Source of the DNA: an uncultured Acidobacteriota bacterium | Lineage (GTDB): Bacteria; Acidobacteriota; Thermoanaerobaculia; UBA5066; Gp7-AA6 | Length of the DNA: 64,000 nt | Direction of reading: 5' to 3' | Assembly (NCBI GenBank): GCA_963764715.1 | Contig: CAVXTP010000017.1 | Span: forward strand, 65,524 to 129,523 | In this document: positions 2,562 to 61,472 of the stretch, piece by piece | Layout of the letters: each line of letters begins with the position of its first letter | Position numbering within the stretch: position 1 is the stretch's first letter | Made by a program: the position numbers and the translations under genes | The notes under the pieces: generated by a model | Seen by the model: the letters and a program-made list of their open reading frames with translations, nothing else | Databases searched by the model: none | Told to the model about the DNA's origin: nothing

Positions 2562-3538
2562 ACGTGCCGGGCGACTTCTCCGGAATCCGGGTCGAGAAGC
2601 TCCTGATCGCGGGCCTGCGCGGCTTCTGCGCCGGCGTCGTCCGCGCGATCGACGTCGTCGAGAAGGCCCTCGAGGCGATCGACGGGCCCGTCTACGTGCG
2701 CAAGGAGATCATCCACAACCGCTACGTCGTCGACGAGCTGCGCGACAAGGGCGCCCGCTTCGTGGAGGAAGTCGACGAGGTCCCGGACAACGCCTCGCTC
2801 ATCTTCTCGGCCCACGGCATCGCGCCCCAGGTCCGCGCCCTCGCCCAGCAGAAGCGGCTGCAGACGATCGACGCGACCTGCCCGCTCGTCACGAAGGTGC
2901 ACCTCGAGGCCATCCACTACGCCAAGCAGGGCTACACGATCATCCTCGTCGGCCACCACGATCACGACGAGACGGTCGGCACGCTCGGCGAGGCGCCGGA
3001 CGCGATCCGCCTGGTCGAGACGCGCGAGGACGCCGAGAAGGTCACGGTGCCGGACCCCGACCGCGTGGCGTACCTGACGCAGACGACGCTCTCGATCGAC
3101 GACACGCGCGACATCCTCGCCGTCCTGAAGCGACGGTTCCCGAACCTGAAGGCCCCCTCGAAGCAGGACATCTGCTACGCCACGCAGAACCGCCAGGACG
3201 CCGTCAAGGCGATGGCGCCCCACGTCGACATGCTGCTGGTGCTCGGGGCGCCGAACTCCTCCAACTCGCTCCGGATGTGCGAGGTCGCCCGCGCCAACGG
3301 GGTCGCGTCGCACCTGATCGAGCGCGCCCGGGACATCCGGCCGGAGTGGCTCCAGGGCGTCCGGGTCCTCGGTCTCACCGCCTCGGCGTCGGCCCCCGAG
3401 ATCCTGGTCCAGGAGGTCGTGACCTTCGCGCGCGAGAAGCTCGGAGTCTCGGTCGTCGAGGAGTTCGAGACCGTCAAGGAAGACGTCCACTTCCCGCTGC
3501 CCCAGGAGTTGAAAGCCCTTCTGCCCGTCAGAGTCTGA
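2558..3538 (+). CDS. ispH: 4-hydroxy-3-methylbut-2-enyl diphosphate reductase
   Basis: Translation from the GTG at 2558 (overlapping the dxs stop) reads ...GLRGFCAGVVRAID...NASLIFSAHGIAPQV...TIDATCPLVTKVH...ICYATQNRQDAV, carrying the conserved IspH/LytB Cys triad. It sits inside the spurious 901-aa track ORF 833..3538. Confidence 0.92.
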   Translation: MNVPGDFSGIRVEKLLIAGLRGFCAGVVRAIDVVEKALEAIDGPVYVRKEIIHNRYVVDELRDKGARFVEEVDEVPDNASLIFSAHGIAPQVRALAQQKRLQTIDATCPLVTKVHLEAIHYAKQGYTIILVGHHDHDETVGTLGEAPDAIRLVETREDAEKVTVPDPDRVAYLTQTTLSIDDTRDILAVLKRRFPNLKAPSKQDICYATQNRQDAVKAMAPHVDMLLVLGAPNSSNSLRMCEVARANGVASHLIERARDIRPEWLQGVRVLGLTASASAPEILVQEVVTFAREKLGVSVVEEFETVKEDVHFPLPQELKALLPVRV

Positions 3539-3554
3539 CGCGTCGGGATCCGGC

Positions 3555-4652
3555 ATGACTCTCCCCACCGCGCCCGTCGCGGCCCCCCGCGGCATTTCGA
3601 AGCTGTCGGACGGCGGGTCGCGCCCCTCGGGCGCGCGACCGCGGGCCGGGCGGATCGCTCTCTTCGCCGCCGGCCTCGTCGTCCTCGGCGCCGGGCTCGC
3701 GCTCGTCGGCTGGACGCCGATCGCCGAGAACCTCGCCCGCATCGGCCCTTACTTCGTCCTGCTCGTCGGCCTCTACGCGGCCGCGCAGATCGCGTTCACG
3801 CTCGGCTGGTGGGTGATCGCCGGCCGGCGCGGCCCGGCGTCGTTCCGGGACCTCTTCGCCGCGTATCTCGCGGGCGACTCGATCAACTACTTCACGAGCG
3901 TCGGCGGCGAGCCCGTCAAGGCCCACCTGCTGCGCGGAAAGATGGGCTTCGGCCCGGCCTTCGCCACGATCTGGGTCAACCGCAACGCGGACGTGCTCGC
4001 GCAGTGGCTCTTCCTCGTCGCCGGAGCGGCCGTCGCGCTGACCCGGTATTCCCTGCCGCCGCTGCCCCGCTTCCTCGTGATCGCCGGCCTGACGGTGCTC
4101 GGCGCGCTCGCGCTCGGGTTCACCGGCATGCAGCGGCGGGGATTCTTCGGGCCGATCCTGAGGCTCCTGAAGAAGGTCCCGCTCCTCGAGAAGCGGCTGT
4201 CGGGGCTCGAGACGCATGCCGAGGAAGTCGACGCGCGGATCCGGCTCTATTACCGGAGCGAGGAGCACGGCCTGCAGTTCGCGATCGCCGTCGTCTGGGG
4301 CTTCCTCGGCTGGTGCGGCGGCCTCGTCGAGACGTGGATCGTCCTGAGGCTGCTCTCCCCGACCCACACGTTCGCATCGGCCTTCGCGGTCGAGTCGCTG
4401 GCGATGATCCTGAACGGCATCCTGCTCTTCATTCCGGCCCGGATCGGGAGCGCCGAAGCCATCCGCCTCGGAGTCGCGGCGCTCGTGGGCCTGACGCCCG
4501 CACAGGGCGCGGCCTACGCGCTCGTCCGGCGGGCCCGCGAGCTGCTGTGGCTCGCGCCGGGGGGCGTCGTGCTCCTGAAGCACCATTTGATCGACGTGGC
4601 GCACTTGCGGCTCGAGCGGCTGGAGCCCTCGGGCCGGGAGGCGCGGCCATGA
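3555..4652 (+). CDS. Flippase-like integral membrane protein (lysylphosphatidylglycerol-synthase TM-region / UPF0104 family)
   Basis: 365 aa with multiple TM helices and a sequence pattern typical of the MprF-N-terminal-like 'flippase-like domain' family (GDSINYFTSVGGEPVKAHLL, RIGSAEAIRLGV). It lies 17 bp downstream of ispH. Confidence 0.7.
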   Translation: MTLPTAPVAAPRGISKLSDGGSRPSGARPRAGRIALFAAGLVVLGAGLALVGWTPIAENLARIGPYFVLLVGLYAAAQIAFTLGWWVIAGRRGPASFRDLFAAYLAGDSINYFTSVGGEPVKAHLLRGKMGFGPAFATIWVNRNADVLAQWLFLVAGAAVALTRYSLPPLPRFLVIAGLTVLGALALGFTGMQRRGFFGPILRLLKKVPLLEKRLSGLETHAEEVDARIRLYYRSEEHGLQFAIAVVWGFLGWCGGLVETWIVLRLLSPTHTFASAFAVESLAMILNGILLFIPARIGSAEAIRLGVAALVGLTPAQGAAYALVRRARELLWLAPGGVVLLKHHLIDVAHLRLERLEPSGREARP

Positions 4653-9880: not shown

Positions 9881-11229
<1,349 letters not shown>

Positions 11230-11246: not shown

Positions 11247-11330
11247 AGGGCGGCCGCCAGGGCCGCCCCTACTCTTGAGGTGGCGGATGTTAAGCCCGGG
11301 CAGAGTAGGGGCGGGGCTTGTCCCCGCCCT
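11247..11330. repeat. Pair of GC-rich palindromic (REP-like) hairpin elements in the MIPS/dinB intergenic region
   Basis: AGGGCGGCCgccagGGCCGCCCCT (11247-11270) and GTAGGGGCGGGGcttgtCCCCGCCCT (11305-11330). The same GTAGGGGCGG...CCGCCCCTAC core recurs at 12541-12626 and 44401-44520. Confidence 0.7.
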
Positions 11331-11356: not shown

Positions 11357-12439
11357 GTGACCCTCCGCCGCATCCTGCACGTCGACATGGACGCGTTCTA
11401 CGCGTCCGTCGAACAGCGCGACGATCCGTCGTTGAAGGGCCGGCCGGTCGCGGTGGGCGGTTCTCCGGAGAGCCGCGGGGTGGTCGCGGCGGCGAGCTAC
11501 GAGGCGCGCAAGTTCGGCGTGCGTTCCGCCATCCCGATGGCCCGGGCCGTGCGGCTGTGCCCGGAGCTGACGATCCTGCGCCCGGACTTCAAGAAGTACG
11601 CGGCCGTCTCCGAGCAGGTCTTCGGCATCTTCCGCAGCGTGACGCCGCTCGTCGAGCCGCTCTCGCTCGACGAGGCGTATCTCGACGTCACGGAGAACTC
11701 CCTCGGCCTGCCGCTCGGCGTCGAGGTGGCGCGGCACCTCAAGCGGCGGATCCACGAGGAGACCCGCCTGACCGCCTCGGCCGGGGTCGCGCCGAACAAG
11801 TTCCTCGCCAAGATCGCCTCGGGCTGGAAGAAGCCGGACGGCCTGACCGTGATCGCGCCGGAGCGCGTCGAGCGGTTCCTCCAGGAGCTCCCGGTCGACG
11901 CCCTCTGGGGCGTCGGTCCCGTGACGGCCGGCCGGCTCCGGGCCGCCGGGATCCACCGTCTCGTCGACGTGCGCACCGCGCCGGCCGACGTGCTCCAGCG
12001 GGCCGTCGGAAGCTGGGCGGAGTCGCTCCGCCGCCTTTCCTTCGGCGAGGACGACCGGACGGTGGAGCCCAACCGGGAGCGCAAGTCGATCGGCTGCGAG
12101 GAGACGTACGCGAAGGACCTCCAGGACCTCGCGGCGATCGCGGGCGAGGTCGAGCGGCTGGCCCGCCGCACCGCCTCGATCCTCGAACGCAAGGCGCTCT
12201 TCGCGCGCACGGTGACGCTCAAGCTGCGATACGCCGACTTCACGACGATCACCCGGAGCGGCACGCAGGACCCCGCCTCGCGCGACGCCGACGGGATCGC
12301 CGCAAGGGCGGCCGCGCTGCTGGCGAAAACCGAGGCGGGAACCCGCCCGGTCCGCCTGCTCGGCGTCTCCGTCCACGGTCTCGCCTCCGAGCCCACCCCC
12401 GATGACGCCGAGCCGGACGATCTCCTGCCGCTCTCGTGA
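11357..12439 (+). CDS. dinB: DNA polymerase IV (Y-family translesion polymerase)
   Basis: The N-terminus ...RRILHVDMDAFYASVEQRDDPSLKGRPVAVGG...SYEARKFGVRSAIPMARA is the canonical DinB start. GTG at 11357 is preferred; an alternative in-frame ATG at 11318 would add 13 residues. Confidence 0.9.
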   Translation: MTLRRILHVDMDAFYASVEQRDDPSLKGRPVAVGGSPESRGVVAAASYEARKFGVRSAIPMARAVRLCPELTILRPDFKKYAAVSEQVFGIFRSVTPLVEPLSLDEAYLDVTENSLGLPLGVEVARHLKRRIHEETRLTASAGVAPNKFLAKIASGWKKPDGLTVIAPERVERFLQELPVDALWGVGPVTAGRLRAAGIHRLVDVRTAPADVLQRAVGSWAESLRRLSFGEDDRTVEPNRERKSIGCEETYAKDLQDLAAIAGEVERLARRTASILERKALFARTVTLKLRYADFTTITRSGTQDPASRDADGIAARAAALLAKTEAGTRPVRLLGVSVHGLASEPTPDDAEPDDLLPLS

Positions 12440-12540
12440 CTGCGCTCGCGGCGCGGCCCCGAGGGCGGCCGCAAGCCGGCCACCGGAGGCAGGCCCCCGA
12501 CCGTAGGCAACGCCGGCCGTAGGCCGGCGGTAACCCAGGG

Positions 12541-12626
12541 CCGCCCCTACGACGGGGTTCAATACGGGAGTTCAAGATGTCGCGGGATCGCTCTGGTCGT
12601 AGGGGCGGGGCTCGTCCCCGCCCTAC
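12541..12626. repeat. REP-like palindromic element, second copy, downstream of dinB
   Basis: GGGCCGCCCCTAC ... GTCGTAGGGGCGGGGctcgtCCCCGCCCTAC. It is preceded by the GCCGGCCgtaGGCCGGC mini-hairpin at ~12510-12530. Confidence 0.7.
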
Positions 12627-13477
12627 TTCCCTGTCGTAATTCCTTTTCGAATGGAGGCGAGCGGCGCGGCGTCGTCGTAGACGGTCCGGCGGCCGTCCGC
12701 CGAGACGCCGAGCTCCTTCCACAGGGCCTCGAGGTCCACTCTGGTCGCCGCCTTTCCGAGCTTCGCGTAGAGCTCCGACAGGACCGGCACCCCCGTGGCG
12801 CGGTCGCCCGCCGCGAGGGCGCGCTCGATCGGCCACGAGACCGTGACGTTGCCCCCGGCCCTCACGATCCCGCGGAGCGCGTCGTCGAGCGATTTCCGGT
12901 TCCCCGTCCGCCTGCGGATCTCGACGTCGGCGAGAAAGCAGAAGGCGGCGCCTCCCCAGTACGTCGAGCCCCAGCTCCGGGCCTCGTCGAGGCCCGTGCT
13001 CCCGATCCCCTCGATCCCCTTCGGCAGGCCCCACAAGAGCCAGCGCCAGATCTCGTCCGGAGCGATGAGTCCCGCGCGGGCGCGGGCGAGCGGCTCGACG
13101 TACGTCGCGAGCCCTTCCTCGATCCACTCGTGGCCCGTCATCGAGGGAAAGGCGAGGTGCACCATCTCGTGGACGAGCACCCAGCTCGTCGCGAGGTCCT
13201 CGGCCGTGGTGTCTTCGCCGGCGGTGATCACGATCGCGGCCCGCCCCCGGTCGCCGAACGTGCGGCCCCCGGCGATCCCCCCGGCGCGGCCGGTGCGGAT
13301 CGTCAGGTCGACGCTCTCGACCGGGAACCCGCCGTAGTACACCGCCACGGCGCGAGCGGCTTTCCCGACCCACGCGAGCAGGTCGGCGCGCGACGGCGAG
13401 TCGCCGGCGCCCGCGAACGACACCTCGATCGTTCCGCCGGGAACCTCGATTCGGGAATCCGCCGGGGTCGCGAGCAA
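12623..13477 (-). CDS. HExxH zinc-metallopeptidase-like hypothetical protein
   Basis: 284 aa with HEMVH and a downstream E (WIEEGLATYVEP). The track start is TTG at 13477. A signal-peptide-like stretch continues in frame upstream (see findings). Confidence 0.55.
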   Translation of the reverse strand: MLATPADSRIEVPGGTIEVSFAGAGDSPSRADLLAWVGKAARAVAVYYGGFPVESVDLTIRTGRAGGIAGGRTFGDRGRAAIVITAGEDTTAEDLATSWVLVHEMVHLAFPSMTGHEWIEEGLATYVEPLARARAGLIAPDEIWRWLLWGLPKGIEGIGSTGLDEARSWGSTYWGGAAFCFLADVEIRRRTGNRKSLDDALRGIVRAGGNVTVSWPIERALAAGDRATGVPVLSELYAKLGKAATRVDLEALWKELGVSADGRRTVYDDAAPLASIRKGITTGK

Positions 13478-26481: not shown

Positions 26482-28641
26482 TCAAAACGACAGACCGAAC
26501 GTCTTGACCATGAACACGGCCATCTGGCCGCGGGTGTTGTTGTTGCCCGGGCAGTAGTTGCCTCCCCCGCAGCCTCCGGTGATGTTCTCGGCCGCGAGGC
26601 GCTCGATCCAGTCCGCGAAGGTCGACGGGCAGGGAACGTCGCCGAAGACCCCCACGCAGGCCGGCGGCACGTAGCTCGATCCGTGCTCTCCCTTGAGGAG
26701 GAACACCGCCATCTGGTCGCGCCGCACCGGGTTCTGCGGGCAGAACTTCCCGCCGCCGCAGCCGCCGGTGATCCCTTCGGCGGACATGGCCTCGATCCAC
26801 GCCGCGAAACTGGACGGGCAGGGCACGTCGGAGAACGTGCCCGCACACGGCGGCGGCGTGTAGCACAGCCCGTGCTTGGCCTTCAGCAGGAAGACCGCTA
26901 TCTGCTGGCGCAGCGTCGGGTTGTCGACGCCATAAAGCCCGCCGCCGATGCCGACCGTGATCGCGTTCGAGACGAGGCCGGTGACGTAGAAGTAGAACTG
27001 GTTGCCGGAATCCACGTCGAGGAAGTTCGAGACCCAGCCCTTCACGAGGGTCCCCGACGTTCCATTGGTGTTCGTGACGACGAGGTCGTTGACGGAACCG
27101 GGCGTCAACGCCGGAGTCCCGCCGGTGATCTGGTTGAAGCCGTTGACCGAGATGTCCGTCGCCGGCTGGCCGCCGACCGTCACCGTCGCGCCGGCCTCGA
27201 AATCGGTGCCGGCGATCGTCATCCCGTTTCCGGCCGCGGCGGGGCCGGCGGCCGGCGTCACCGAGAAGGGCAGGCGCTGCGAGAACTCCGAGGTCCTTCC
27301 GCCGGGCGTCGTCGCCGTGACCGAGATCCGCGCGCCCGCCGCCGTCGCCACGGGCAGCGAGACGTCGAAGGACCCGACGCCCGCGCCGTCCGTCGTGACC
27401 TGGCTCGAGCCGAGATACGTCTCCCCTTCGAGGAACTCCCGCGGGAAGTTCGAGCACGCCGCGTTCGAGTAGAAGTCGAGGTCGAACACCGTGGACGGCG
27501 TCGAGTGCAGCAGGCCCTGAACGTGCGTCGGGTTGCCGGTCGTCACCGACTTCAGGACCGGAAAGTTCTGGATGCCGTCCGCCTCGGCCAGATCGTTCGG
27601 CGTTGCCCCGTCGTTGCCCACGTCGATCCCGAGGCCCGCGTTGTCGTGGATGGAGTTGCCGCGGATCGTCACGCCGTCCACGACGTTCACGAAGATTCCG
27701 TTCCCGGAGCTGTACGCGATGATGTTGCCCTGGCCGGTCCCGATCCCCCCGATGGTGACATCGTCGTTCATCACGGTGATCGCGCCCGGCCCCGTGCCGA
27801 GCGGCAGAGTTCCCGTCACGTCCGTGCCGAGCTTGTTGCCCTGGATCACGGTTCCGAGCCCCGCGCCGTCGATCAGGCTGAATTCGGCGGCGGCCATGAC
27901 GTTGTCGCGGATCGTGACGCTCGGCGACGCACCGGCGACGGCGGTGCCGGGACCGATGGCCGAGGTTCCCGCCGCGTCGGTTCCGAAGAGGTTGTTCCGC
28001 ACCAGCAGGCCGGGCTGCCCTTCACACTCGATGTGATAGATCGTCGCGGCGGCGAAGAGATTCCGATCGGCCGGGTTCGGGCCGCCGACGACCGTCCCGG
28101 ACCCCACCACGTCGACGACCGAGACGGCGGTCGGATCGGCCGTGTGCCCGTCCGGCGCGACACCGAAGAAGCAGCCCGTGATGTGGGTGTCCGTTCCGCC
28201 CAGGATGTCGATGGCCGGATGCCAGTCCTTCCGGAAGACGAGGCCCCGCACGGTCGCCGGGCCCGTCACCGTGAAACAGAGCTGGTTCGAGAGGTTGACC
28301 GCCGAGAGGACGATCTTCAGGACCGCGTTCGTGCCCTGCGCGAGCGTGTTGACCGAGGCCCCCGGCTGGGTGTAGCCGTCGATCGTGACGGGGTCGGTGA
28401 CGTTGACCAAAGGATTGAGCGGCGCGATCGTGCAGACGCCGCTGCCGTCGCAGCCCGAATCGGACCCCGGAATGTTGAACGCGATCGTGTCGGCGCCGGC
28501 GTTGTTGTCGGCGTCGATGATCGCCTGCCGGAACGAGCCCGCGCCCGAGTCGTTGGTGTTGGTCACCGTGAACGTCGCCGCCGAGAGATTCGAGATCAGG
28601 AGAACGCCCGAGGCGAGGCCGACGCCGAGTCGATGTCTCAT
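26482..28641 (-). CDS. Secreted right-handed beta-helix protein with three C-terminal Cys-rich SLH-like repeats (paralog B)
   Basis: ATG at 28641 (MRHRLGVGLASGVLLISNLSAA). Same architecture as paralog A with high identity (shared AATFTVTNTND..AGAGS..QAI.DA.N.AGADT.AFN and C-terminal repeats). Confidence 0.7.
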   Translation of the reverse strand: MRHRLGVGLASGVLLISNLSAATFTVTNTNDSGAGSFRQAIIDADNNAGADTIAFNIPGSDSGCDGSGVCTIAPLNPLVNVTDPVTIDGYTQPGASVNTLAQGTNAVLKIVLSAVNLSNQLCFTVTGPATVRGLVFRKDWHPAIDILGGTDTHITGCFFGVAPDGHTADPTAVSVVDVVGSGTVVGGPNPADRNLFAAATIYHIECEGQPGLLVRNNLFGTDAAGTSAIGPGTAVAGASPSVTIRDNVMAAAEFSLIDGAGLGTVIQGNKLGTDVTGTLPLGTGPGAITVMNDDVTIGGIGTGQGNIIAYSSGNGIFVNVVDGVTIRGNSIHDNAGLGIDVGNDGATPNDLAEADGIQNFPVLKSVTTGNPTHVQGLLHSTPSTVFDLDFYSNAACSNFPREFLEGETYLGSSQVTTDGAGVGSFDVSLPVATAAGARISVTATTPGGRTSEFSQRLPFSVTPAAGPAAAGNGMTIAGTDFEAGATVTVGGQPATDISVNGFNQITGGTPALTPGSVNDLVVTNTNGTSGTLVKGWVSNFLDVDSGNQFYFYVTGLVSNAITVGIGGGLYGVDNPTLRQQIAVFLLKAKHGLCYTPPPCAGTFSDVPCPSSFAAWIEAMSAEGITGGCGGGKFCPQNPVRRDQMAVFLLKGEHGSSYVPPACVGVFGDVPCPSTFADWIERLAAENITGGCGGGNYCPGNNNTRGQMAVFMVKTFGLSF

Positions 28642-44400: not shown

Positions 44401-44520
44401 CTCCGCCCCGGGTCGTAGGGGCGGCCCTTGTGGCCGCCCTTCGAGCGAGGGCGGGGGCAAGCCCCGCCCCGACGACGGGAGCCGCCCTTCGTCCTACGGC
44501 GACAGCCCCGGCTCGTAGTT
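44401..44520. repeat. REP-like GC-rich palindromic element cluster (third locus)
   Basis: GTCGTAGGGGCGGCCcttgtGGCCGCCCT, GGGCGGGGGCaagCCCCGCCCC, GGGAGCCGCCCTTCGTCCTACGGCG. It shares the GTAGGGGCGG core with the 11.3-kb and 12.6-kb copies. Confidence 0.7.
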
Positions 44521-48030: not shown

Positions 48031-48066
48031 ATCCGAGGGCGGCCCGCGCGGCCGCCCTGCGCTTTT
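48031..48066 (+). terminator. Rho-independent terminator-like hairpin after the yceI-like gene
   Basis: GAGGGCGGCCcgcgcGGCCGCCCTgcgCTTTTCT: a GC stem followed by a T-rich tract. Confidence 0.55.
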
Positions 48067-54222: not shown

Positions 54223-55271
54223 GCGCCCGGGCGAAGCTCGAGATTCCGGCCGCGGGCCTCGTCGAGCGGGGCCTCGTCCCGGACGCCATCCTGCGCCTGG
54301 CGATCCGGCGCCTCCTCGCCGCGCGACTCCGCGAGGAAGACGCCGGAGACCCCGAGGCCGCGCGCCGCCGCACCGACGCGTTCGCCGCGAGGATGCGGGA
54401 GAGCCCGATCGCCATCGCGACTTCCGACGCCAACGCCCAGCACTACGAGGTCCCGCCGCGGCTCTTCGAGCTCGTCCTCGGGAAACGCATGAAGTACAGC
54501 TGCGGTCTCTACGAGAGCACGACGGTGACGCTCGACGAGGCCGAGGAGGCGATGCTCGCCCTGACGGGCGCCCGGGCGCAGCTCCAGGACGGCCAGGAGG
54601 TCCTCGAGCTCGGCTGCGGCTGGGGCTCGCTCACCCTCTGGATGGCGGAGCGGTTTCCGCGTTCCAGGATCACGGCCGTCTCCAACTCCCGCGACCAGCG
54701 CGGATTCATCGAGATGCGCGCCCGGGAGCGCGGCCTCTCGAACGTCACGATCGCGACGGCGGACATGAACGTGTTCGACCCCGGCCGGACGTTCGATCGG
54801 ATCGTGTCCGTCGAAATGTTCGAGCACATGCGCAACTGGCCGAAGCTGCTCGAGCGGATCGCCTTCTGGATGCGCCCCGACGCGCGTCTCTTCCTGCACG
54901 TCTTCTCCCACCGGGCGGTCGCCTACCCCTTCGACGTGCGGGACGCCTCCGACTGGATGGCGCGCGAATTCTTCACCGGGGGGCTCATGCCCTCCGACGA
55001 CCTGCTCGACCGGTTCCCGGACCACGTCCGGATCGAGGCGCGCTGGCAGGTCGACGGCACCCACTACCAGCGAACCGCCGAGGACTGGCTCGCGAACCTC
55101 GACGCCCGGCGCGACGAGGCCCTCGCGCTCTTCGCCGCGACGTACGGAGAGACCGAAGCGCGCGCGCGGCTCGCGGCCTGGCGCCTCTTCTTCCTCGCCT
55201 GCGCCGAGTGCTGGGGCTACCGCGGCGGAACGGAGTGGATCGTCTCGCACTACCGGCTGCGCCGGTCCTGA
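54219..55271 (+). CDS. Cyclopropane-fatty-acyl-phospholipid synthase-family SAM-dependent methyltransferase (copy 2)
   Basis: ...MKYSCGLYE...VLELGCGWGSLTLWMAERFPRSRITAVSNS... and a C-terminal ...WRLFFLACAECWGY. Confidence 0.85.
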   Translation: MSARAKLEIPAAGLVERGLVPDAILRLAIRRLLAARLREEDAGDPEAARRRTDAFAARMRESPIAIATSDANAQHYEVPPRLFELVLGKRMKYSCGLYESTTVTLDEAEEAMLALTGARAQLQDGQEVLELGCGWGSLTLWMAERFPRSRITAVSNSRDQRGFIEMRARERGLSNVTIATADMNVFDPGRTFDRIVSVEMFEHMRNWPKLLERIAFWMRPDARLFLHVFSHRAVAYPFDVRDASDWMAREFFTGGLMPSDDLLDRFPDHVRIEARWQVDGTHYQRTAEDWLANLDARRDEALALFAATYGETEARARLAAWRLFFLACAECWGYRGGTEWIVSHYRLRRS

Positions 55272-55288
55272 GGTAGCCTGCCCGGAGA

Positions 55289-56206
55289 GTGAACCTCCCC
55301 ACGCCGCTCGAGGCGGCGCCGGCGGAGCTCGCCGGCGGCCGGCCCCTGGACTTGAAGCGCGAGGACGCGCACGAGCTCGGCGCGTTCAAGTGGCGCGGAG
55401 CGCTGCCCACGGTCGAGGCGTACAAGCGGCAGGGCGCCTCGGCCGTCGTCACCGCCTCGACCGGGAACCACGGGGCCGCGGTCGCCTGGGCCTCGCGGCG
55501 GCTGGGCCTGCGCGCGATGGTCTACGCGCCCGCGGGCGCTTCGCTCGCGAAGCTCGCGCTGATCGACTCGCTCGGCGCCGAGATCCGGCTCATCGGCACC
55601 GACCTCGACTTCGCCAAGGACGAGGGCAAGCGCTTCGCGGCCGAAGCCCGGCTTCCCTTCTTCGAGGACGGCGTCGAGCCCACGCAGTACCAGGGATACG
55701 GGGCGATCGCCGACGAGATCCTCGACCAGGGCACAGAGCCGCCGGCCGCCGTCGTCGTGCCGGTCGGCAACGGCGCGCTGATCGGCGGGATCGGCCGGAC
55801 CCTGAAGCGCCGCTCCCCCGCGACGTCCCTCGTCGGCGTCGCCGCGAAGGAGGCGCCGGTCATGGCGCTGTCCCACCGGGCGGGCCGCGCCGTCGAGAGC
55901 GACCGCATGGGGACCTTCGCCGACGGCCTCGCGGTCCGCGTCGCGATCCCCGAGGCGGTCGAGCTCGTCAACGGGGTCGTCGACCGGATGCTCCTGGTGT
56001 CCGAGCGGTCCATGGCGGAAGCGATCGGCGCGTTTCACCGTGCCGGAATTCGCGCCGAGGGCGCCGCCGCCGCGGGCCTCGCCGCGCTGCCTCAGCTTCC
56101 GCTTCCGGTCGACGTGGGACGGATCGTCCTCGTCGTCACCGGCCGCAACATCGACGAGGCTCTCCACCGCCGCGCCGTCGAGGACCCCGGCTCCTTCCCG
56201 GACTGA
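55289..56206 (+). CDS. PLP-dependent (tryptophan-synthase-beta-fold, PALP) enzyme, threonine/serine dehydratase-like
   Basis: GTG start. ...EDAHELGAFKWRGALPTV...VTASTGNHGAAVAWA... (PLP lysine in FKWRG, glycine-rich loop). Confidence 0.7.
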   Translation: MNLPTPLEAAPAELAGGRPLDLKREDAHELGAFKWRGALPTVEAYKRQGASAVVTASTGNHGAAVAWASRRLGLRAMVYAPAGASLAKLALIDSLGAEIRLIGTDLDFAKDEGKRFAAEARLPFFEDGVEPTQYQGYGAIADEILDQGTEPPAAVVVPVGNGALIGGIGRTLKRRSPATSLVGVAAKEAPVMALSHRAGRAVESDRMGTFADGLAVRVAIPEAVELVNGVVDRMLLVSERSMAEAIGAFHRAGIRAEGAAAAGLAALPQLPLPVDVGRIVLVVTGRNIDEALHRRAVEDPGSFPD

Positions 56207-56224
56207 GCCCGTCTTCGGCCCCGG

Positions 56225-56259
56225 CTTACTGCTTACCGCTTACCGCTTACCGCTTACTG
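56225..56259. repeat. Heptanucleotide tandem repeat array (CTTACYG)x5, inverted partner of the array at 59375-59438
   Basis: cttactg cttaccg cttaccg cttaccg cttactg, in the gap between two convergent genes. The last unit overlaps the amidase stop codon. Confidence 0.9.
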
Positions 56260-57878
56260 ACCCTCAAATCCACCGTCGGCAGATACCGCGGCGGCCGCCG
56301 CACCTTCGTCGCCTGCTCGAACGCGTAGGCGATCTTCAGGAGCGTCGGCTCGCTGCCGGCCCGGCCGAAGAACGACAGCCCGACCGGCAGCCCGAAGTGC
56401 CAGCCCGCGGGCACGGTGATGTCGGGATAGCCGGCGATCGCCGGGATCGACGAGCTCCCGTCGGCGCCGTAGCCGCCGTTGACGAGGTCGATCAGCGACG
56501 CGGGGCCCGAGGTCGGCGCGACGAGGCAGTCGAGACGATGTTCGTCCATGGTCTTGTCGATGCCCTCGACGCGCGACAGCCGGAGGTCCTTGGCGAGCGC
56601 GTCGACGTAGGCCTTGTCCGTCAGCGGGCCCTTGGCTTCCGCCTTCTCGAAGATCTCCTGCCCGAAGTACGGCATCTCGCTCTCGCGGTTCTTCGCGTTG
56701 AAGAGGATCAGGTCCGAGAGCGTCCGGTACCGCGTCCGGGAGCCGAGCCCCGCGAGATGGGCGTTGAGGTCCGCCTTGAACTCGTAAAGGAGCACTTCGA
56801 ATTCGGACTCGCCGATCTCGCCCGCCGATGCGATGTCGGCCGGGTCCACGATGACGGCGCCCTCCCGCCGCATGACCGCGAGGGCATCCTCGGCGACGGC
56901 GTCGGCCGCCGGGCTCTGCCCGTAGAGCTTTTTGCGCGGCACGCCGATGCGGGCGCCGGCGAGGCCGCGGGGATCGAGGAAGGTCGCGTAGTCGATCGGC
57001 GCCCTCCCGGCGAGGTCGCGTGTCGCCGGGTCCGCCGGATCGAAGCCGCACATCGCGGTCAGCAGGATCGCGGCGTCGGCGACGGTGCGGGTCATCGGGC
57101 CGGCGGTGTCCTGGCTGTGCGCGATGGGGATGATCCCGCTCCGCGACACGAGGCCGAGCGTCGGTTTCAGCCCGACGAGGCCGCAGTTGTTGGACGGCGA
57201 GACGATCGAGCCGTCGGTCTCCGTCCCGATCGTGATCGCGCAGAGGCTCGCCGCCGCCGCGGCCCCCGAGCCCGAGCTCGAGCCCGACGGATCGCGGTCG
57301 AGGGCGTACGGGTTGCGGCACTGCCCGCCGCGGCCGCTCCAGCCGCTCTGGGAGTGCGTCGAGCGGAAGTTGGCCCACTCCGAGAGGTTCGTCTTGCCGA
57401 GGATCACCGCGCCCGCGTCGCGCAGCCGCTGGACGATGTGGGCGTCCTTCTCGGGAACCGCTCCGACGAGGGCGAGCGAGCCGGCCGTCGTCTGCATGCG
57501 GTCGGCGGTCCCGATGTTGTCCTTGATCAGCACGGGGATCCCGTGGAGGGGCCCGCGGACCTTGCCGGCCTTGCGCTCGGCGTCGAGGCGGTCGGCGATC
57601 GCCAGGGCGTCGGGGTTCACCTCGAGGACCGCCCGCAGCGTCGGGCCCTTCCGGTCGATCGCCTCGATGCGCGCGATGTACTTCTCGGCGAGCGTGCGGG
57701 CGGAGTCCGCGCCCGAGGCCAGCCGCTTCTGGAGATCGGCGACCGTCAGCTCGTCGAGCTCGCCCGCCGGCGGCGGCGGAGGGTCGGCCGGCGGCGGCCC
57801 CGCCGCAGCGTTGCGGGAGACCGCCGCGGCGGCGCCTCCCAGGACTCCGCTCTTCAACAGGGACCGGCGATCGATCAT
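56247..57878 (-). CDS. Amidase-signature family amidase, Tat/Sec-secreted
   Basis: N-terminal twin-arginine-like signal MIDRRSLLKSGVLGGAAAA and an AS signature region ...GGSSSGSGAAAAASLCAITIGTETDGSIVSPS... (Ser-cisSer-Lys triad context). Confidence 0.85.
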   Translation of the reverse strand: MIDRRSLLKSGVLGGAAAAVSRNAAAGPPPADPPPPPAGELDELTVADLQKRLASGADSARTLAEKYIARIEAIDRKGPTLRAVLEVNPDALAIADRLDAERKAGKVRGPLHGIPVLIKDNIGTADRMQTTAGSLALVGAVPEKDAHIVQRLRDAGAVILGKTNLSEWANFRSTHSQSGWSGRGGQCRNPYALDRDPSGSSSGSGAAAAASLCAITIGTETDGSIVSPSNNCGLVGLKPTLGLVSRSGIIPIAHSQDTAGPMTRTVADAAILLTAMCGFDPADPATRDLAGRAPIDYATFLDPRGLAGARIGVPRKKLYGQSPAADAVAEDALAVMRREGAVIVDPADIASAGEIGESEFEVLLYEFKADLNAHLAGLGSRTRYRTLSDLILFNAKNRESEMPYFGQEIFEKAEAKGPLTDKAYVDALAKDLRLSRVEGIDKTMDEHRLDCLVAPTSGPASLIDLVNGGYGADGSSSIPAIAGYPDITVPAGWHFGLPVGLSFFGRAGSEPTLLKIAYAFEQATKVRRPPRYLPTVDLRVSKR

Positions 57879-57933
57879 CGCGTCCTCCGCTTTCGTGCGG
57901 CCGAGAGATATCACGGAGCGGCGCGGGCCCGCG

Positions 57934-59340
57934 TCAGAAGAGGTGCGCGATCGAGTTGGCGTAGTAGCGCAGCAGCGGCACCTCGTCCGGGCGGGCGCGG
58001 AAGAGGCCGCCGGCCTCCTCGACGAGGCGGCGCAGCGTCAGCATGCGGAGGCCCACCGTGATCGCGTAGTCCTGGTCGCCCCGCGGGACGTAGACGTGGG
58101 CCCCCCGCCCCTCGAGCTCCCGGATCAGCCGCAGCACCTCGCCCTTGAGCTCGAGCTCGCTCCAGCTCCGCTCCGGCGCCCGCACGAAGACCGTCGCGAC
58201 GAGCGAGACCGGGACGACCGGGATGACCCGCGCGATCTCCCCCATCAGCTCCCGCGCCAGGTCCGACAGGCGCCGGGAGCGCTCCTCTCCCGCGAGGGAG
58301 CGAAAGTCGAACGCGTGGCGCTGGAGGTGGCGCCGGAGCGAAACGGGCGAGCCGAAGTTCACGCACGCGTAGCCGAACCGGTGCCAGCGATTGAGGGCCC
58401 TCAGCCAGACGTTGCGGCCGATGAACCGCGCCGTCGTCCCCGCCGCGGCCGGCGCGCTCCGGGGAGAGGCCTCCGGGTCGAGCTCGCGCAGGAAGCTGCG
58501 GTCCTCGAACGTCCGGTCGTAGTTGATGCCGACCGGGATGAAGACGATGTCGCGCTCCCCCGCCGGGTCGAACGACCGGACCATGTAGTCGAGGATGCCG
58601 AGCCTGGGCGGCCGCAGCTTCCCGTCGCGCGAGAGGCCGCCCTCCGGGAAGACCGCCTGCGTCACGCCCGCCGCGGTGGCCATCCCGACGTAACGCTCGA
58701 GGACCTTGCGGTAAAGGGGGTCCTTCGAGTTGCGCCGCACGAAGTACGCGCCCATCGAGCGGATCAGCGTCTGCAGCGGCCAGATGCGCGCCCACTCGCC
58801 GACGGCGTAGGAGAGCGCGGCCTTCTCCGCCGCGAGATACGAGACGAGGACGTAGTCCATGTTGCTGCGGTGGTTGATGAGGAAGACGACCGTCGCCTTC
58901 GGAGGCATCGACGCGAGGCCTTCCTCGTCCTCGTAGCCGAGGCGCACCCGGTAGAGCGAGCGCGCCAGGTTGCGGGCGAGCCAGTAGCCGATGCGGAAGT
59001 AGGCGTACGCGTTGAAGGCCGGGACGATCTCGCGCGCGTAGCGGCCGACGCGCTGCATGACGACCTCGCGCGGCATCGCCTTCTCCCTCGCCTCGGCCTC
59101 CGCGGCCTGCTGCACCTGGGGGTCGTAGAGCAGGCGGTCGATCAGGACCTCGCGCTTCGTCAGCTCGAAGTGCGCGATGCGGATCTTCAGGCGGGTGTTG
59201 ATCTCCTCGAGGACCCGGTTGACCCGGCGCCGGAGAAACCACCGGACGCTCGGGATGAGCAGCCGGTCGAGGGCGGCCCACGCCGCGAGGATCGCGAGCA
59301 GGATGGCGAGCCAGGTCGGAAGCTCGACGGTGCCGCGCAT
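57934..59340 (-). CDS. Glycerolipid acyltransferase (PlsB/PlsC-like lysophospholipid acyltransferase family; HxxxxD motif)
   Basis: Start ATG at 59340 (MRGTVELPTWLAILLAILAAW...). H(X4)D motif VFLINHRSNMDYVL plus a downstream FPEGG motif. The longer 513-aa track ORF translates the non-coding heptamer array. Confidence 0.75.
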   Translation of the reverse strand: MRGTVELPTWLAILLAILAAWAALDRLLIPSVRWFLRRRVNRVLEEINTRLKIRIAHFELTKREVLIDRLLYDPQVQQAAEAEAREKAMPREVVMQRVGRYAREIVPAFNAYAYFRIGYWLARNLARSLYRVRLGYEDEEGLASMPPKATVVFLINHRSNMDYVLVSYLAAEKAALSYAVGEWARIWPLQTLIRSMGAYFVRRNSKDPLYRKVLERYVGMATAAGVTQAVFPEGGLSRDGKLRPPRLGILDYMVRSFDPAGERDIVFIPVGINYDRTFEDRSFLRELDPEASPRSAPAAAGTTARFIGRNVWLRALNRWHRFGYACVNFGSPVSLRRHLQRHAFDFRSLAGEERSRRLSDLARELMGEIARVIPVVPVSLVATVFVRAPERSWSELELKGEVLRLIRELEGRGAHVYVPRGDQDYAITVGLRMLTLRRLVEEAGGLFRARPDEVPLLRYYANSIAHLF

Positions 59341-59374
59341 GGGAAGTGCTTGCCGAGCATAGGACAGTCGTCGG

Positions 59375-59438
59375 CCAGTGAGCAGGAGGCAGGAGGCAGG
59401 CAGTAAGCAGTAAGCAGTAAGCAGTAAGCAGTAAGCAG
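59375..59438. repeat. Heptanucleotide tandem repeat array (GCAGGAG)x2-(CAGTAAG)x5, the reverse complement of the CTTACTG array at 56225
   Basis: gcaggag gcaggag gcagg cagtaag x5 cag. It lies 35-95 bp upstream of the acyltransferase start. Confidence 0.9.
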
Positions 59439-59494
59439 GGATACGAAAAGGGGCGGCCGTGCGGGGCCGCCCCACCTGGTCCGACCGGCCTGAC

Positions 59495-60055
59495 CTAGCG
59501 CGGCCAGAGCCAGCCGAAGACGCCGGCCGTCAGGAGCCCGTACACGATCCCGTCGATCACTTCCTTGATCGTCGAGGACCAGGACCGGCCCCACCAGATC
59601 GCGTTCGGCACGATCCCGGCGGCGTAGGCCAGCGCGGCGGCCCCGCCCGCGGTGTGGAAGACCGTGCGGTAGGAGGAGCCCACCGGCAGGACGCGGCCGG
59701 CGACGCAGGCGACCACCGTCGAGACCACCAGCAAATAGACGAACCAGAGGCCGAGCTGCTTGCCCATCCCCATCGGTCCGGGCGGCCAGACGACCATCGT
59801 GCCCATCGGGCCTTCTTCCATCTTCTTCTTCGTCTCGGGGCTCTTGTCGCGCGGGTCGCAGAACGGGAAGCGGTACTGCCCGCGCCCCACGCCCGCGCGG
59901 CGCATGGCCTCGAGCACTCCCGCCTCGCCGGGAAGCTGGGCCCAGTCCTTCTTGTGGTGCGGCAGGAACATCCAGACGATGGAGCTCGCGATGTAGACGA
60001 GGACCGCGGAGCCCAGGATGGGAAGCCAGAGTGAGCCGAGGGCGACCATACCCAC
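59495..60055 (-). CDS. Hypothetical membrane protein (3-4 TM)
   Basis: 186 aa with hydrophobic segments and reasonable GC3 bias. No family recognised. Confidence 0.45.
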   Translation of the reverse strand: MGMVALGSLWLPILGSAVLVYIASSIVWMFLPHHKKDWAQLPGEAGVLEAMRRAGVGRGQYRFPFCDPRDKSPETKKKMEEGPMGTMVVWPPGPMGMGKQLGLWFVYLLVVSTVVACVAGRVLPVGSSYRTVFHTAGGAAALAYAAGIVPNAIWWGRSWSSTIKEVIDGIVYGLLTAGVFGWLWPR

Positions 60056-60114
60056 CTCCTTGTGCGGTTGGAGCGAAGTGGCGGAATTATCCTCCCGAAT
60101 CCGCGCGGCGTAGG

Positions 60115-60570
60115 ATGCGCCCCATGGAATGGCGCCGCGGCGGTTATGCGATCTCGACCGACCCGCAACGGCTGGACCGGGCCGCCATTCACGGCTTCCT
60201 GTCCGGTTCCTACTGGGCGAAGGGCATCCCGCGCGAGGTCGTCGAGCGCTCGATCGAGGGGGCCCTCTGCTTCGGCCTCTACGAGGGAGAACCCCAGGTC
60301 GGTTTCGCCCGGGTGATCACCGACCGTGCGACCTTCGCCTACCTCGCCGACGTCTTCGTCGTCGAATCGCACCGCGGCCGGGGGCTCGCCGCCTGGCTCA
60401 TGGAGACCGTCATGGGGCACCCCGAGCTCCAGGGGCTCCGCCGCTGGATCCTCATGACCCGGGACGCGCACGGGCTCTACCGGAAGTTCGGCTTCCGCGA
60501 GATCGCCGATTCCGGCCGCTGCATGGAGATCGTGGACCGCGAGGTGTACACGCGGGCTCCGCGACGCTAG
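60115..60570 (+). CDS. GNAT-family N-acetyltransferase
   Basis: ...FVVESHRGRGLAAWLMETVM...LYRKFGF..., the acetyl-CoA-binding motif A (R/Q-x-x-G-x-G/A). Confidence 0.75.
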   Translation: MRPMEWRRGGYAISTDPQRLDRAAIHGFLSGSYWAKGIPREVVERSIEGALCFGLYEGEPQVGFARVITDRATFAYLADVFVVESHRGRGLAAWLMETVMGHPELQGLRRWILMTRDAHGLYRKFGFREIADSGRCMEIVDREVYTRAPRR

Positions 60571-60695
60571 AATCGCCCCGCTGCCTATGATCGTCCCTCG
60601 GTAAAAAGCGCGGTTCCCCGGACGGCCCGGCCGTCCGATCACGAAGCCACGAACGCGGGGCGCCCGCGCACGGGCGCTCGCCGAGAGGAGATCCC

Positions 60696-61472
60696 TTGAA
60701 CGCACCCACGGACTGGTGGAAGACCTTCTTCGACGGCCTCGCCGTCGGCTTCTGGCGGGCCGCCGTCCCGCCGGAAGCGACCCGGGCCGACGCCGACTTT
60801 CTCTGGAAGCACCTGAATCTCGCGCCGGGCGCCCGCGTCCTCGACGTGCCCTGCGGCGCCGGGCGGCTGACGCTGCCGCTCGCCGAACGCGGCTGCGCGA
60901 TGTCGGGCGTCGACATCTCGACCGAGTCCGTCGAGGCCGCGGCGGCCGCCGCCGCCGAGCAGGGGCTCGCCGTCGACTTCCGGTGCGCCGACATGCGCGA
61001 CCTGCCCGCGTCGTCCGGGTTCGACGCGGCGTTCTGCTTCGGCAACAGCTTCGGGTACCTCGACGACGCCGGCAACGAGGCCTTCGTCGCGGCCGCCGCG
61101 CAGGCGCTCTCGCCCGGCGGACGCCTGGCCATCGACTTCGGGCAGACGGCCGAGGGCGTCTTTCCGCGGCTCGAGCCCCGGCTCGAGGGCGAGCTCCACG
61201 GATTCCGGTTCGTGGAAGAGACGCGCTTCGACCCGGTCACCTCGCGCATCGAGAACGTCTTCGAGTTCTCGAAGGACGGCCGGTCCGAGCGCAAGCTCGC
61301 TTCGCAGCGCGTCTACCTGGCGGGCGACCTCGTCCGCATGCTCGGCCGCGCGGGCCTTCGGGTCCTCGGCCTCTACGGATCGCCGGAGGAGGAGCCCTTC
61401 GCCCTCAGCTCGCAGCGCCTCCTGATCGTGGCGGAGAAGCCGCGAGCTTCCGGACGAGGGACACGAGGCTGA
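60696..61472 (+). CDS. Class-I SAM-dependent methyltransferase
   Basis: TTG start. Motif I VLDVPCGAGRLTLPLAERG; post-I acidic GVDIS. Confidence 0.75.
   Translation: MNAPTDWWKTFFDGLAVGFWRAAVPPEATRADADFLWKHLNLAPGARVLDVPCGAGRLTLPLAERGCAMSGVDISTESVEAAAAAAAEQGLAVDFRCADMRDLPASSGFDAAFCFGNSFGYLDDAGNEAFVAAAAQALSPGGRLAIDFGQTAEGVFPRLEPRLEGELHGFRFVEETRFDPVTSRIENVFEFSKDGRSERKLASQRVYLAGDLVRMLGRAGLRVLGLYGSPEEEPFALSSQRLLIVAEKPRASGRGTRG

Follow-up and report, generated by a model that had tools for sequence, protein, structure and literature searches.

Inverted CTTACTG heptanucleotide arrays flanking an acidobacterial amidase-acyltransferase gene pair: probable independent microsatellites at terminator tails and gene 3′ ends

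Heptanucleotides are the commonest of the long simple-sequence repeats in many prokaryotes, at least as Mrazek 2007 is quoted in PMC4679880, and although this prevalence has been on record since 2007, no explanation has been offered for it. Arrays of TAACTGA, in two to six copies, are dispersed between the genes of Beggiatoaceae, Cyanobacteria and Bacteroidetes (MacGregor 2015, PMC4679880); there, indels of 7 nt distinguish close strains at corresponding places between genes, and the function is unknown (PMC4679880). For heptamer repeats near promoters in Nostoc a regulatory role has been suggested, not shown (bioRxiv 10.1101/2022.06.06.494920), and in Haemophilus influenzae a heptanucleotide simple-sequence repeat in the promoter/5′ untranslated region of hmw1A and hmw2A makes expression dependent on the number of repeats (PMC8262952, PMC12721329). 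The subject here is a pair of arrays with the unit CTTACTG, inverted relative to each other, in a 64-kb stretch of DNA (the window; all coordinates are positions in it) from an uncultured, high-G+C Thermoanaerobaculia lineage of the Acidobacteriota, where they stand on either side of an amidase gene and an acyltransferase gene. The names carried by homologs of 75-80% identity point to the Thermoanaerobaculia. Literature searches brought up no paper describing the units CAGTAAG, CTTACTG, CTCACTG or CAGTGAG. The explanation we favour, and hold with reasonable though not full confidence, is that the arrays are independent, lineage-specific heptanucleotide microsatellites seeded at the tails of terminators or of elements like repetitive extragenic palindromes (REP), at gene 3′ ends.

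Array 1 occupies 56225..56259 and on the plus strand reads as five units of CTTACYG (CTTACTG CTTACCG CTTACCG CTTACCG CTTACTG), both by eye and with Tandem Repeats Finder (TRF: 56224-56257, period 7, 4.9 copies). The perfect part of array 2, at 59401..59435, has CAGTAAG five times on the plus strand, which is to say (CTTACTG)x5 on the minus strand to which the array is assigned, again by direct reading and TRF (59400-59438, 5.6 copies, 100% matches). Toward the acyltransferase gene it is extended, at 59376..59400, by the degenerate minus-strand heptamers CCTG CCTCCTG CCTCCTG CTCACTG, the plus strand from 59376 running CAGTGAG CAGGAGG CAGGAGG CAGG and then (CAGTAAG)5. Within this extension TRF also finds GCAGGAG, in 2.7 copies at 59382-59400 where an earlier note on this DNA had counted two. 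A two-unit, 14-nt probe with up to three mismatches has 12 matches in the 64 kb against 0.55 expected from shuffles, and 10 of the 12 fall within the two arrays; this excess, together with the TRF copy numbers, means that both are real and non-random, as the earlier note had proposed, each being a head-to-tail run of 7-nt units longer than chance. The same probe uncovered no third heptamer array elsewhere in the window.

A repeat finder takes the pair for a 40-nt inverted repeat, 90% complementary, with its arms 3141 nt apart. The arms are not, however, the exact reverse complements that they had been taken for, since three of the five units differ (CCG versus CTG), and the longest unbroken identity between them, as read from the sequences, is about 13 nt. 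Both arrays are intergenic, coding overlap being limited, in array 1, to the final four codons and the stop of the amidase gene. The region of array 2, at 43% G+C, is the most AT-rich stretch locally. Predicted RNA structure of the arrays is not significant (z = −1.7, −0.8 and +0.5), the terminator hairpin alone being stable, and an Rfam search of 55000-61000 gave no match at E≤1.

Where the arrays stand in relation to genes, as taken from an open reading frame (ORF) listing and Pfam, accounts for their orientation. Array 1 begins 18 nt past the TGA stop of a gene for a pyridoxal-phosphate (PLP)-dependent enzyme (PALP; 55289..56206, plus strand), which is convergent with the amidase gene (56247..57878, minus strand). 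Array 2 lies directly 3′ of the strong minus-strand terminator of a gene for a membrane protein of 186 aa (59495..60055, minus strand). A third array, (CTTACTG)4-5, is present in two relatives, L121 and L122, at a distance of about 5 kb, where a Bax1-I gene and an ABC-transporter gene converge; judging by these two loci, its counterpart would lie about 600 nt past the end of the window. All three arrays read CTTACTG along the direction of the upstream gene (PALP, plus, for array 1; the membrane protein, minus, for array 2), and it is the opposed strands of these two genes that make arrays 1 and 2 inverted.

Orthologous loci of relatives were retrieved through homologs of the acyltransferase and the amidase, and are labelled L121-L125, L128, L132, L136, L138, L140, L144 and L206-L210. 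By acyltransferase identity to the window, L121 (from ERZ25039463 contig_51134) is at 94%, L122 and L206 are at 92%, L207 and L208 at 89%, L123 and L124 at 88%, L125 at 80% and 80 metagenome loci at 58-84%; by amidase identity L209 is at 93% and L210 at 87%. L121 and L122 have arrays at both orthologous sites, with copy numbers and interruptions that differ from those of the window. On the promoter side, where the window has array 2, L122 has the same terminator, TTTTCGTATCCCTG and then CTTACTG CTTACTG CTTACCG CTCTACTG CTTACGG (about four to five interrupted units), and L121 has CTTACTG CTTACTG C CTTACTG, the unrelated CTTATCTCTCTGTTATCTCTCTGT, and ACTG CTTACTG CTTACGG (2+1+2). On the amidase side both have CGGTAAG CAGTAAG alone, two units versus the five of the window, and these again provide the stop. 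In L206 there is only a promoter-side stub of two units (ACTG CTTGCTG CTTACG), in L210, on the amidase side, an array of five decayed units (CGGTAAG CCGTAAG CGGTAAA CAGCAAG CGGGAGA) with none on the promoter side, and in L209 no heptamer array at any of the three sites. A search of L123-L125, L209 and the 80 metagenome loci for a CTTACTG array found none.

To go by these comparisons the arrays are young and variable in unit number, and appear to have been gained, lost and eroded site by site; independent gain and loss at each site is the behaviour of microsatellites and not of a functionally coupled pair. The earlier note had called for a comparison of copy number between strains and reads, and orthologous sites in L121 and L122 do differ in units. 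It had also set up, as its own counter-case, arrays that are invariant, unique and absent from orthologous positions, which is not what is found, and its finding stands as a polymorphic simple-sequence repeat.

Where might such arrays start? The terminator of the membrane-protein gene is a GC-rich intrinsic-terminator hairpin at 59450..59473 (minus strand), with a GTGG head and nine G-C pairs followed by TTTTCGTATC, and it belongs to a REP-like family of the form GGGGCGGCC-loop-GGCCGCCC. Sequence comparison places the junction tail TTTTCGTATCCCTG, at 59436..59449 (minus strand), between this hairpin and array 2. The tail is letter for letter the same before array 2 of both L121 and L122 and before the third array of L121; that of the third array in L122, TTTTCCGTATCCCTG, is one base different. 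What array 2 of the window, L121 and L122 has in common with the third array of L121 and L122 is a junction consisting of the hairpin, TTTT(TT)CGTATCCCTG and (CTTACTG)n, with stems that differ. The third-array site of L209 has four tandem copies of GTAGGGGCGGCCCTTGCGGCCGCCC-TTTTTCGTGCCCTGC, the same hairpin with a near-identical tail and no heptamers. Every heptamer in the array 2 tract ends in CTGC (TTA-CTGC, CTC-CTGC), as does the tail of the element (CCCTGC), and this common ending is our ground for inferring that the tail was the seed of the microsatellite and that slippage extended it from there.

The course of events would then be that a young array family with the unit CTTACTG (TTACTGC in the other phase) grows in short spacers at gene 3′ ends. 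At least for arrays 2 and 3 the seed would have been TTTTCGTATCCCTGC, the tail, rich in pyrimidines, of a GC-rich and REP-like terminator hairpin that is itself dispersed between the genes of this clade. The tract would thereafter expand, contract and decay, presumably through slipped-strand mispairing and point mutation, and genome-wide the arrays would be found mostly at 3′ ends, with many joined to a TTTTCGTnnCCCTGC tail.

REP and REPIN elements are repetitive extragenic palindromes that have a GT[AG]G head and are mobilised by RAYT transposases. The hairpins described here, being extragenic palindromes with such a head and in multiple copies, answer to that description in form, and the arrays do not. 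GTAG-headed hairpins with the family pattern GTAGGGGCGG[CC/GG]-loop-[GG/CC]CCGCCC, often in inverted doublets, look like REP/REPIN elements, and the window has four exact pattern hits against none expected from shuffles: at 11248-11272 on the minus strand and, on the plus strand, at 11305-11329, 12599-12623 and 44415-44439, the last with a partner at about 44449-44475. Related hairpins of the family are at 48036-48058 (plus strand) and, next to array 2, at 59446-59473 (minus strand). In L209 the spacers that hold arrays in other genomes are filled by tandems of REP-like hairpins, at 2890-3290 (about 107 bp, four times) and 11640-12300 (about 210 bp, three times); the latter lies in the amidase/PALP spacer, where roughly three copies of a repeat of about 210 bp, made up of similar GTAG-headed hairpins, have enlarged the spacer from 40 nt to about 690 nt.

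Two side effects on the genes in between would follow from growth at these places. The first is that array 1 would have rewritten the end and the stop of the convergent amidase, a protein of 543 aa (PF01425) with a twin-arginine-like RRSLL N-terminus. Its TAA stop (56247-56249) sits within array 1, an overlap already seen in the earlier note, and the minus strand of the array codes the final residues (..V S K R) together with that stop; since CAGTAAG holds TAA in all three frames, the array appears to have replaced about five codons at the end of the amidase gene, and the stop. Array-encoded C-termini are confined to the window (..VDLRVSKR) and the L121 type (..VDLKIGKQ), and the amidase homologs P0252 (close) and P0122-P0124 (91-93%) retain an ancestral ..AGSR[AS] end. 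In L209 (11633-11640) and L124 (about 10395-10402) the TAG of a GTAG head is the amidase stop, from which it would seem that there an intergenic repeat overwrote the gene end, as the heptamer array did in the window. L122 has, at 11659-13292, an amidase called as two separate ORFs of 236 and 182 aa, whether as a pseudogene or through an indel error in a long-read assembly.

The second side effect is that array 2 would put a tract of 43% G+C directly upstream of the core promoter of the acyltransferase gene (57934..59340, minus strand), which specifies a GPAT/PlsC-type protein of 468 aa (PF01553 + PF19277). Pfam agrees with the amidase and PlsB/PlsC-like acyltransferase that had been named as lying between the arrays, and the upstream position of the second array holds good too, with the distance from the acyltransferase ATG measured as 36-98 nt in place of 35-95 bp. 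There is also a longer open frame, 57934-59475 on the minus strand, which opens at a GTG within the terminator and crosses array 2 before joining the acyltransferase, to which it adds 45 codons; it stays open because CTTACTG has no stop in any frame. This extension was set aside as an artefact that gene callers might take up, homologs all beginning at the conserved ATG (59340).

Several considerations weigh against microsatellites that merely come and go. Some of the small differences between the arrays of L121 and L122 may be errors of long-read assembly, the split amidase of L122 giving reason for caution over 1-nt differences. The arrays are kept at the same sites across lineages 6-8% apart in protein, and some maintenance could be conceived of; three of them fall within about 9 kb (the third by way of L121 and L122), with none in the other 55 kb or so of the window. 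The left flank of array 1 (GAGCCCGTCTTCGGCCCCGG in the window, GAGCCGGCCTTCGGCCCCTG in L121) is only loosely like the hairpin tail, and an origin of array 1 from the same hairpin element is uncertain. Finally, a strict strand polarity of CTTACTG in unrelated phyla, to which we now turn, hints at a function or a dedicated mechanism over neutral slippage.

A genome scan for (CRGTAAG)3 gave at least 120 loci, with some genomes represented twice, from Acidobacteriota, Chloroflexota, Verrucomicrobiota, Planctomycetota, Bacteroidota, Nitrospirota, several proteobacterial classes and candidate phyla. Among these at least 120 loci, 24 have an inverted partner within 150 nt, always as (CAGTAAG)n-loop-(CTTACTG)n and never in the mirror form (24:0). 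Looser settings raise such hairpins to 35, with predicted energies of about −29 to −155 kcal/mol, and a TRF-based method applied to the same set gives an orientation of 22:0 for the CAGTAAG family versus 16:8 for other units. For 109 arrays among the matches listed, a terminator-like hairpin with a T-run no more than 90 nt away precedes the CTTACYG orientation eight times and the opposite one never. By crude ORF calls, none of 17 hairpin loci among the matches listed is between divergent genes, and at about 21 of the at least 120 loci a gene reading into the CAGTAAG strand ends inside the array or within 8 nt of it. In the window the two arrays, 3.1 kb apart, are oriented the other way, divergently, as would suit single arrays that are independent of each other.

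Some generalizations from this set were tried and given up. The loci carry 159 other heptamer arrays in 0.9 Mb, and the idea that all co-occurring heptamers have an ACTG core holds only in part (26 of the 159, against a roughly estimated 5% by chance). A rule that the purine-rich arm of heptamer hairpins is always 5′ is strict for the CAGTAAG family and weak elsewhere, on the 22:0 and 16:8 counts among the matches listed. An asymmetry of G·U-rich hairpins as a sign of the transcribed strand was dropped, as it follows by construction from orienting on a perfect CTTACYG arm. One locus, L107 from a metagenome-assembled genome of Verrucomicrobiota, has at 3281-3765 a palindromic structure of about 485 nt with arms of roughly 135 nt and a 204-nt centre; heptamer arrays form the outer ends of the arms and a further conserved inverted repeat lies inside, in the manner of a miniature inverted-repeat transposable element or a giant hairpin. 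Literature searches found no description of the orientation of CAGTAAG-family hairpins, of their polarity to terminators or of their supplying stop codons.

The polarity may stem from seeding on T-rich terminator tails, or from a function at gene 3′ ends. That CTTACTG/CAGTAAG arrays constitute a strand-polar, terminator-associated class of element across many phyla, and not neutral microsatellites, we consider rather unlikely, though worth keeping in view. If it were so, the Thermoanaerobaculia arrays would be single-arm versions of a general 3′-end module, which would extend the terminator, act as an insulator or belong to the end of the mRNA, or, alternatively, the footprint of a mechanism that writes heptamers at gene ends. 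The specific proposal that the arrays are functional 3′-end modules, strand-polar, placed after terminators or at stops and reinforcing termination or insulation – possibly as the site of a protein roadblock, by loading a termination factor onto read-through RNA, or as a stop in three frames – draws on the fact that all three arrays of this clade follow a gene 3′ end in the same orientation. It draws equally on the counts from other phyla: the adjacent inverted pairs that go one way only (24:0 and 22:0), the 8:0 order of terminator and CTTACYG, and the crude calls by which no hairpin locus is between divergent genes and about 21 arrays provide a stop, in each case among the matches listed. Those gene calls are crude, however, the polarity could reflect seeding on T-rich tails, and close relatives do without arrays and have REP-like hairpins at the amidase-side and third-array sites instead. 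CUUACUG is also without the YC dinucleotides that Rho prefers, and no binding protein is known for it. We think the proposal quite unlikely. Were polarity to mean function, REP elements would no longer be alone as a general class of 3′-end element, heptamer arrays being another, and the heptanucleotide repeats of bacteria would have a testable role.

Independent microsatellites also seem preferable to a regulatory device at the acyltransferase promoter. At 16-25 nt before the acyltransferase ATG the window shares a conserved CCTATGCTC motif with L121-L125, L206, L128, L132, L138 and L140, and TATGCT within it (59356..59361, minus strand, 16 nt before the ATG) is probably the −10 box of an mRNA with a short leader; in relatives further removed, boxes of the type TAnnnT are about as far from the ATG. 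The heptamer tract, 59376-59438, would then cover about −27 to −90, with its degenerate end overlapping the −35 position (59379-59384, TGCTCA). No convincing −35 hexamer could be assigned for this promoter, and a sigma-70 consensus scan found no promoter near array 2. With TATGCT downstream of the whole tract, changes in unit number would move the DNA upstream of about −27 and leave the −35/−10 spacing as it is. Classical on/off phase variation by promoter spacing is accordingly not supported for this presumed promoter, and neither is the phase-variable promoter element of the earlier note.

A subtler possibility is that array 2 is a tunable promoter element of the contingency type, in which a 7-bp unit change would grade acyltransferase transcription, possibly because an upstream element is moved in distance or phase, or because there is more or less of the AT-richer DNA that resembles an UP element. 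The tract is directly upstream of the presumed −35 position and touches it, it is the most AT-rich stretch in the vicinity, its copy number differs among the closest relatives, and heptanucleotide promoter repeats with graded effects are documented elsewhere (PMC8262952, PMC12721329). Yet the −35/−10 spacing is indifferent to unit changes, a promoter of sigma-70 type went undetected, and the CTTACTG unit occurs also at two non-promoter sites, both between convergent genes. Relatives manage without an array, and the host is a free-living environmental bacterium in which the gene specifies a housekeeping-type lipid enzyme and no surface antigen. Such tuning is, in our judgement, a long shot.

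The most tempting thought on seeing a 40-nt, 90% complementary inverted repeat that encloses exactly two genes is that the arrays are recombination substrates or terminal repeats, and that the amidase-acyltransferase segment inverts, excises or moves. Gene for gene and strand for strand, L121, L122 and L209 repeat the order of GNAT, membrane protein, acyltransferase, amidase and PALP, and L125 has it minus the membrane gene; the acyltransferase and amidase are adjacent, with the same flanks, also in L128, L132, L136 and L144. In six of these loci (L125, L128, L132, L136, L144 and L209) the gene pair has its context but no arrays, and because gene order is conserved in such array-free relatives, the pair and its context are older than the arrays. 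No inverted segment was found in any of the relatives retrieved, the orientation being the same in L121, L122, L125, L128, L132, L136, L144, L209 and L210, and G+C and skew over the 3.1 kb are like those of the flanks. Each array, moreover, occurs without the other. RecA recombination usually needs roughly 23-27 bp of identity, and the two arms, with about 13 nt in their longest unbroken match, fall short of this. Neither a recombinase nor a transposase turned up among the six neighbours in the window or among the Pfam families listed for the orthologous loci of 21 kb; these were the only regions checked, and to them the earlier remark that no recombinase is visible has to be confined.

On this evidence the 3.1-kb segment appears to be ordinary conserved chromosome and no movable or invertible cassette, and recombination between the arrays very improbable. 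What had been suggested of a bracketed mobile unit, and of its inversion or excision, does not survive a gene pair that exists array-free, arrays that are gained and lost independently, constant orientation and so short an identity. In part of the clade a gene for a YfhO-family membrane protein, on the opposite strand, splits the acyltransferase from the amidase (L123 6370-8637, L124 6554-8683, L207 6824-8041, L210 7658-9928), and the pair is therefore not an obligate operon.

Hardly credible at all is RNA pairing, in which the two ends of one bicistronic acyltransferase-amidase transcript, 5′ (CUUACUG)5 and 3′ (CRGUAAG)5, would anneal over 35 bp and the duplex would serve processing or stabilisation: the differences between the arrays would, on the sense strand, be three G·U wobbles and not C·A mismatches, but these are one variant unit repeated, that is to say a 50:50 chance, the arrays are single in relatives, the YfhO gene parts the two genes in L123, L124, L207 and L210, and array 2, being upstream of the conserved −10 box and straight after a strong terminator, is unlikely to be in the mRNA, for which reason the duplex is dismissed.

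Beyond the membrane-protein gene the window continues with genes for a GNAT acetyltransferase (60031..60570, plus strand) and a methyltransferase (60696..61472, plus strand). The strongest tandem repeat of the window is elsewhere, a duplication of 189 bp at 26548-26922 (2.0 copies, 74% matches, TRF score 408).

If the arrays are the independent microsatellites that we take them for, the locus displays how rapid the turnover of short gene-end spacers is, one site at a time, in an uncultured acidobacterial lineage. The same three spacers have heptamer arrays, clusters of REP-like hairpins or almost nothing, depending on the genome, and what is inserted in them alters the last codons and the stops of adjacent genes. 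The result also removes a tempting but mistaken reading of the amidase-acyltransferase pair as shufflon-like or a mobile cassette.

How, then, do the arrays compare with what is known? With the invertons of fim, hin and Bacteroides they have in common inverted repeats that flank a short gene-bearing segment, and there the likeness ends: no recombinase is in the regions checked, relatives display no polymorphism of orientation, the repeats are independent microsatellites and the segment is conserved without them. A transposon or cassette would be present or absent as a unit with repeats at its ends, which the segment is not. The promoter repeats of hmw1A and hmw2A are like array 2 in that a 7-bp unit is arrayed ahead of a gene and that lineages differ in copy number, but array 2 lies upstream of the −10 box, and CTTACTG is also at non-promoter sites. 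The hairpin family of array 2 resembles REP/REPIN elements in consisting of GC-rich extragenic palindromes, with GTAG-headed copies in the window and in L209, and in occurring as inverted doublets or tandem clusters at gene ends, where copies sometimes provide a TAG stop; the heptamer arrays, by contrast, are not themselves palindromic. To our knowledge, a heptamer microsatellite that grows from the tail of a REP element is not a described feature.

It is with the heptanucleotide repeats themselves that the likeness is fullest. The STRR, described heptamers of heterocystous cyanobacteria, are in the strict sense a different family, given the CTTACTG unit and the Thermoanaerobaculia host. With the TAACTGA arrays and the wider class of long simple-sequence repeats there is agreement in the 7-nt unit, in two to six copies and in the intergenic position; recurrence at several loci of one genome may be a further likeness, with two arrays in the window and the third, about 5 kb off, in L121 and L122. 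Close strains differ by 7-nt steps at matching positions and slightly more distant relatives miss the arrays; the RNA is unstructured, stops in all frames are on one strand only, and there is a common ACTG core. The differences are that CTTACTG arrays are at gene 3′ ends or after terminators, whereas the BOGUAY arrays are just upstream of start codons, and that the present ones have their own unit and host, with two of the three joined to the tail of a REP-like hairpin. The CTTACTG arrays fit the prokaryotic heptanucleotide repeat class in every feature testable here, and the details that are new to that class are their unit, the lineage that hosts them and the way they are attached to terminator tails of a REP-like kind.

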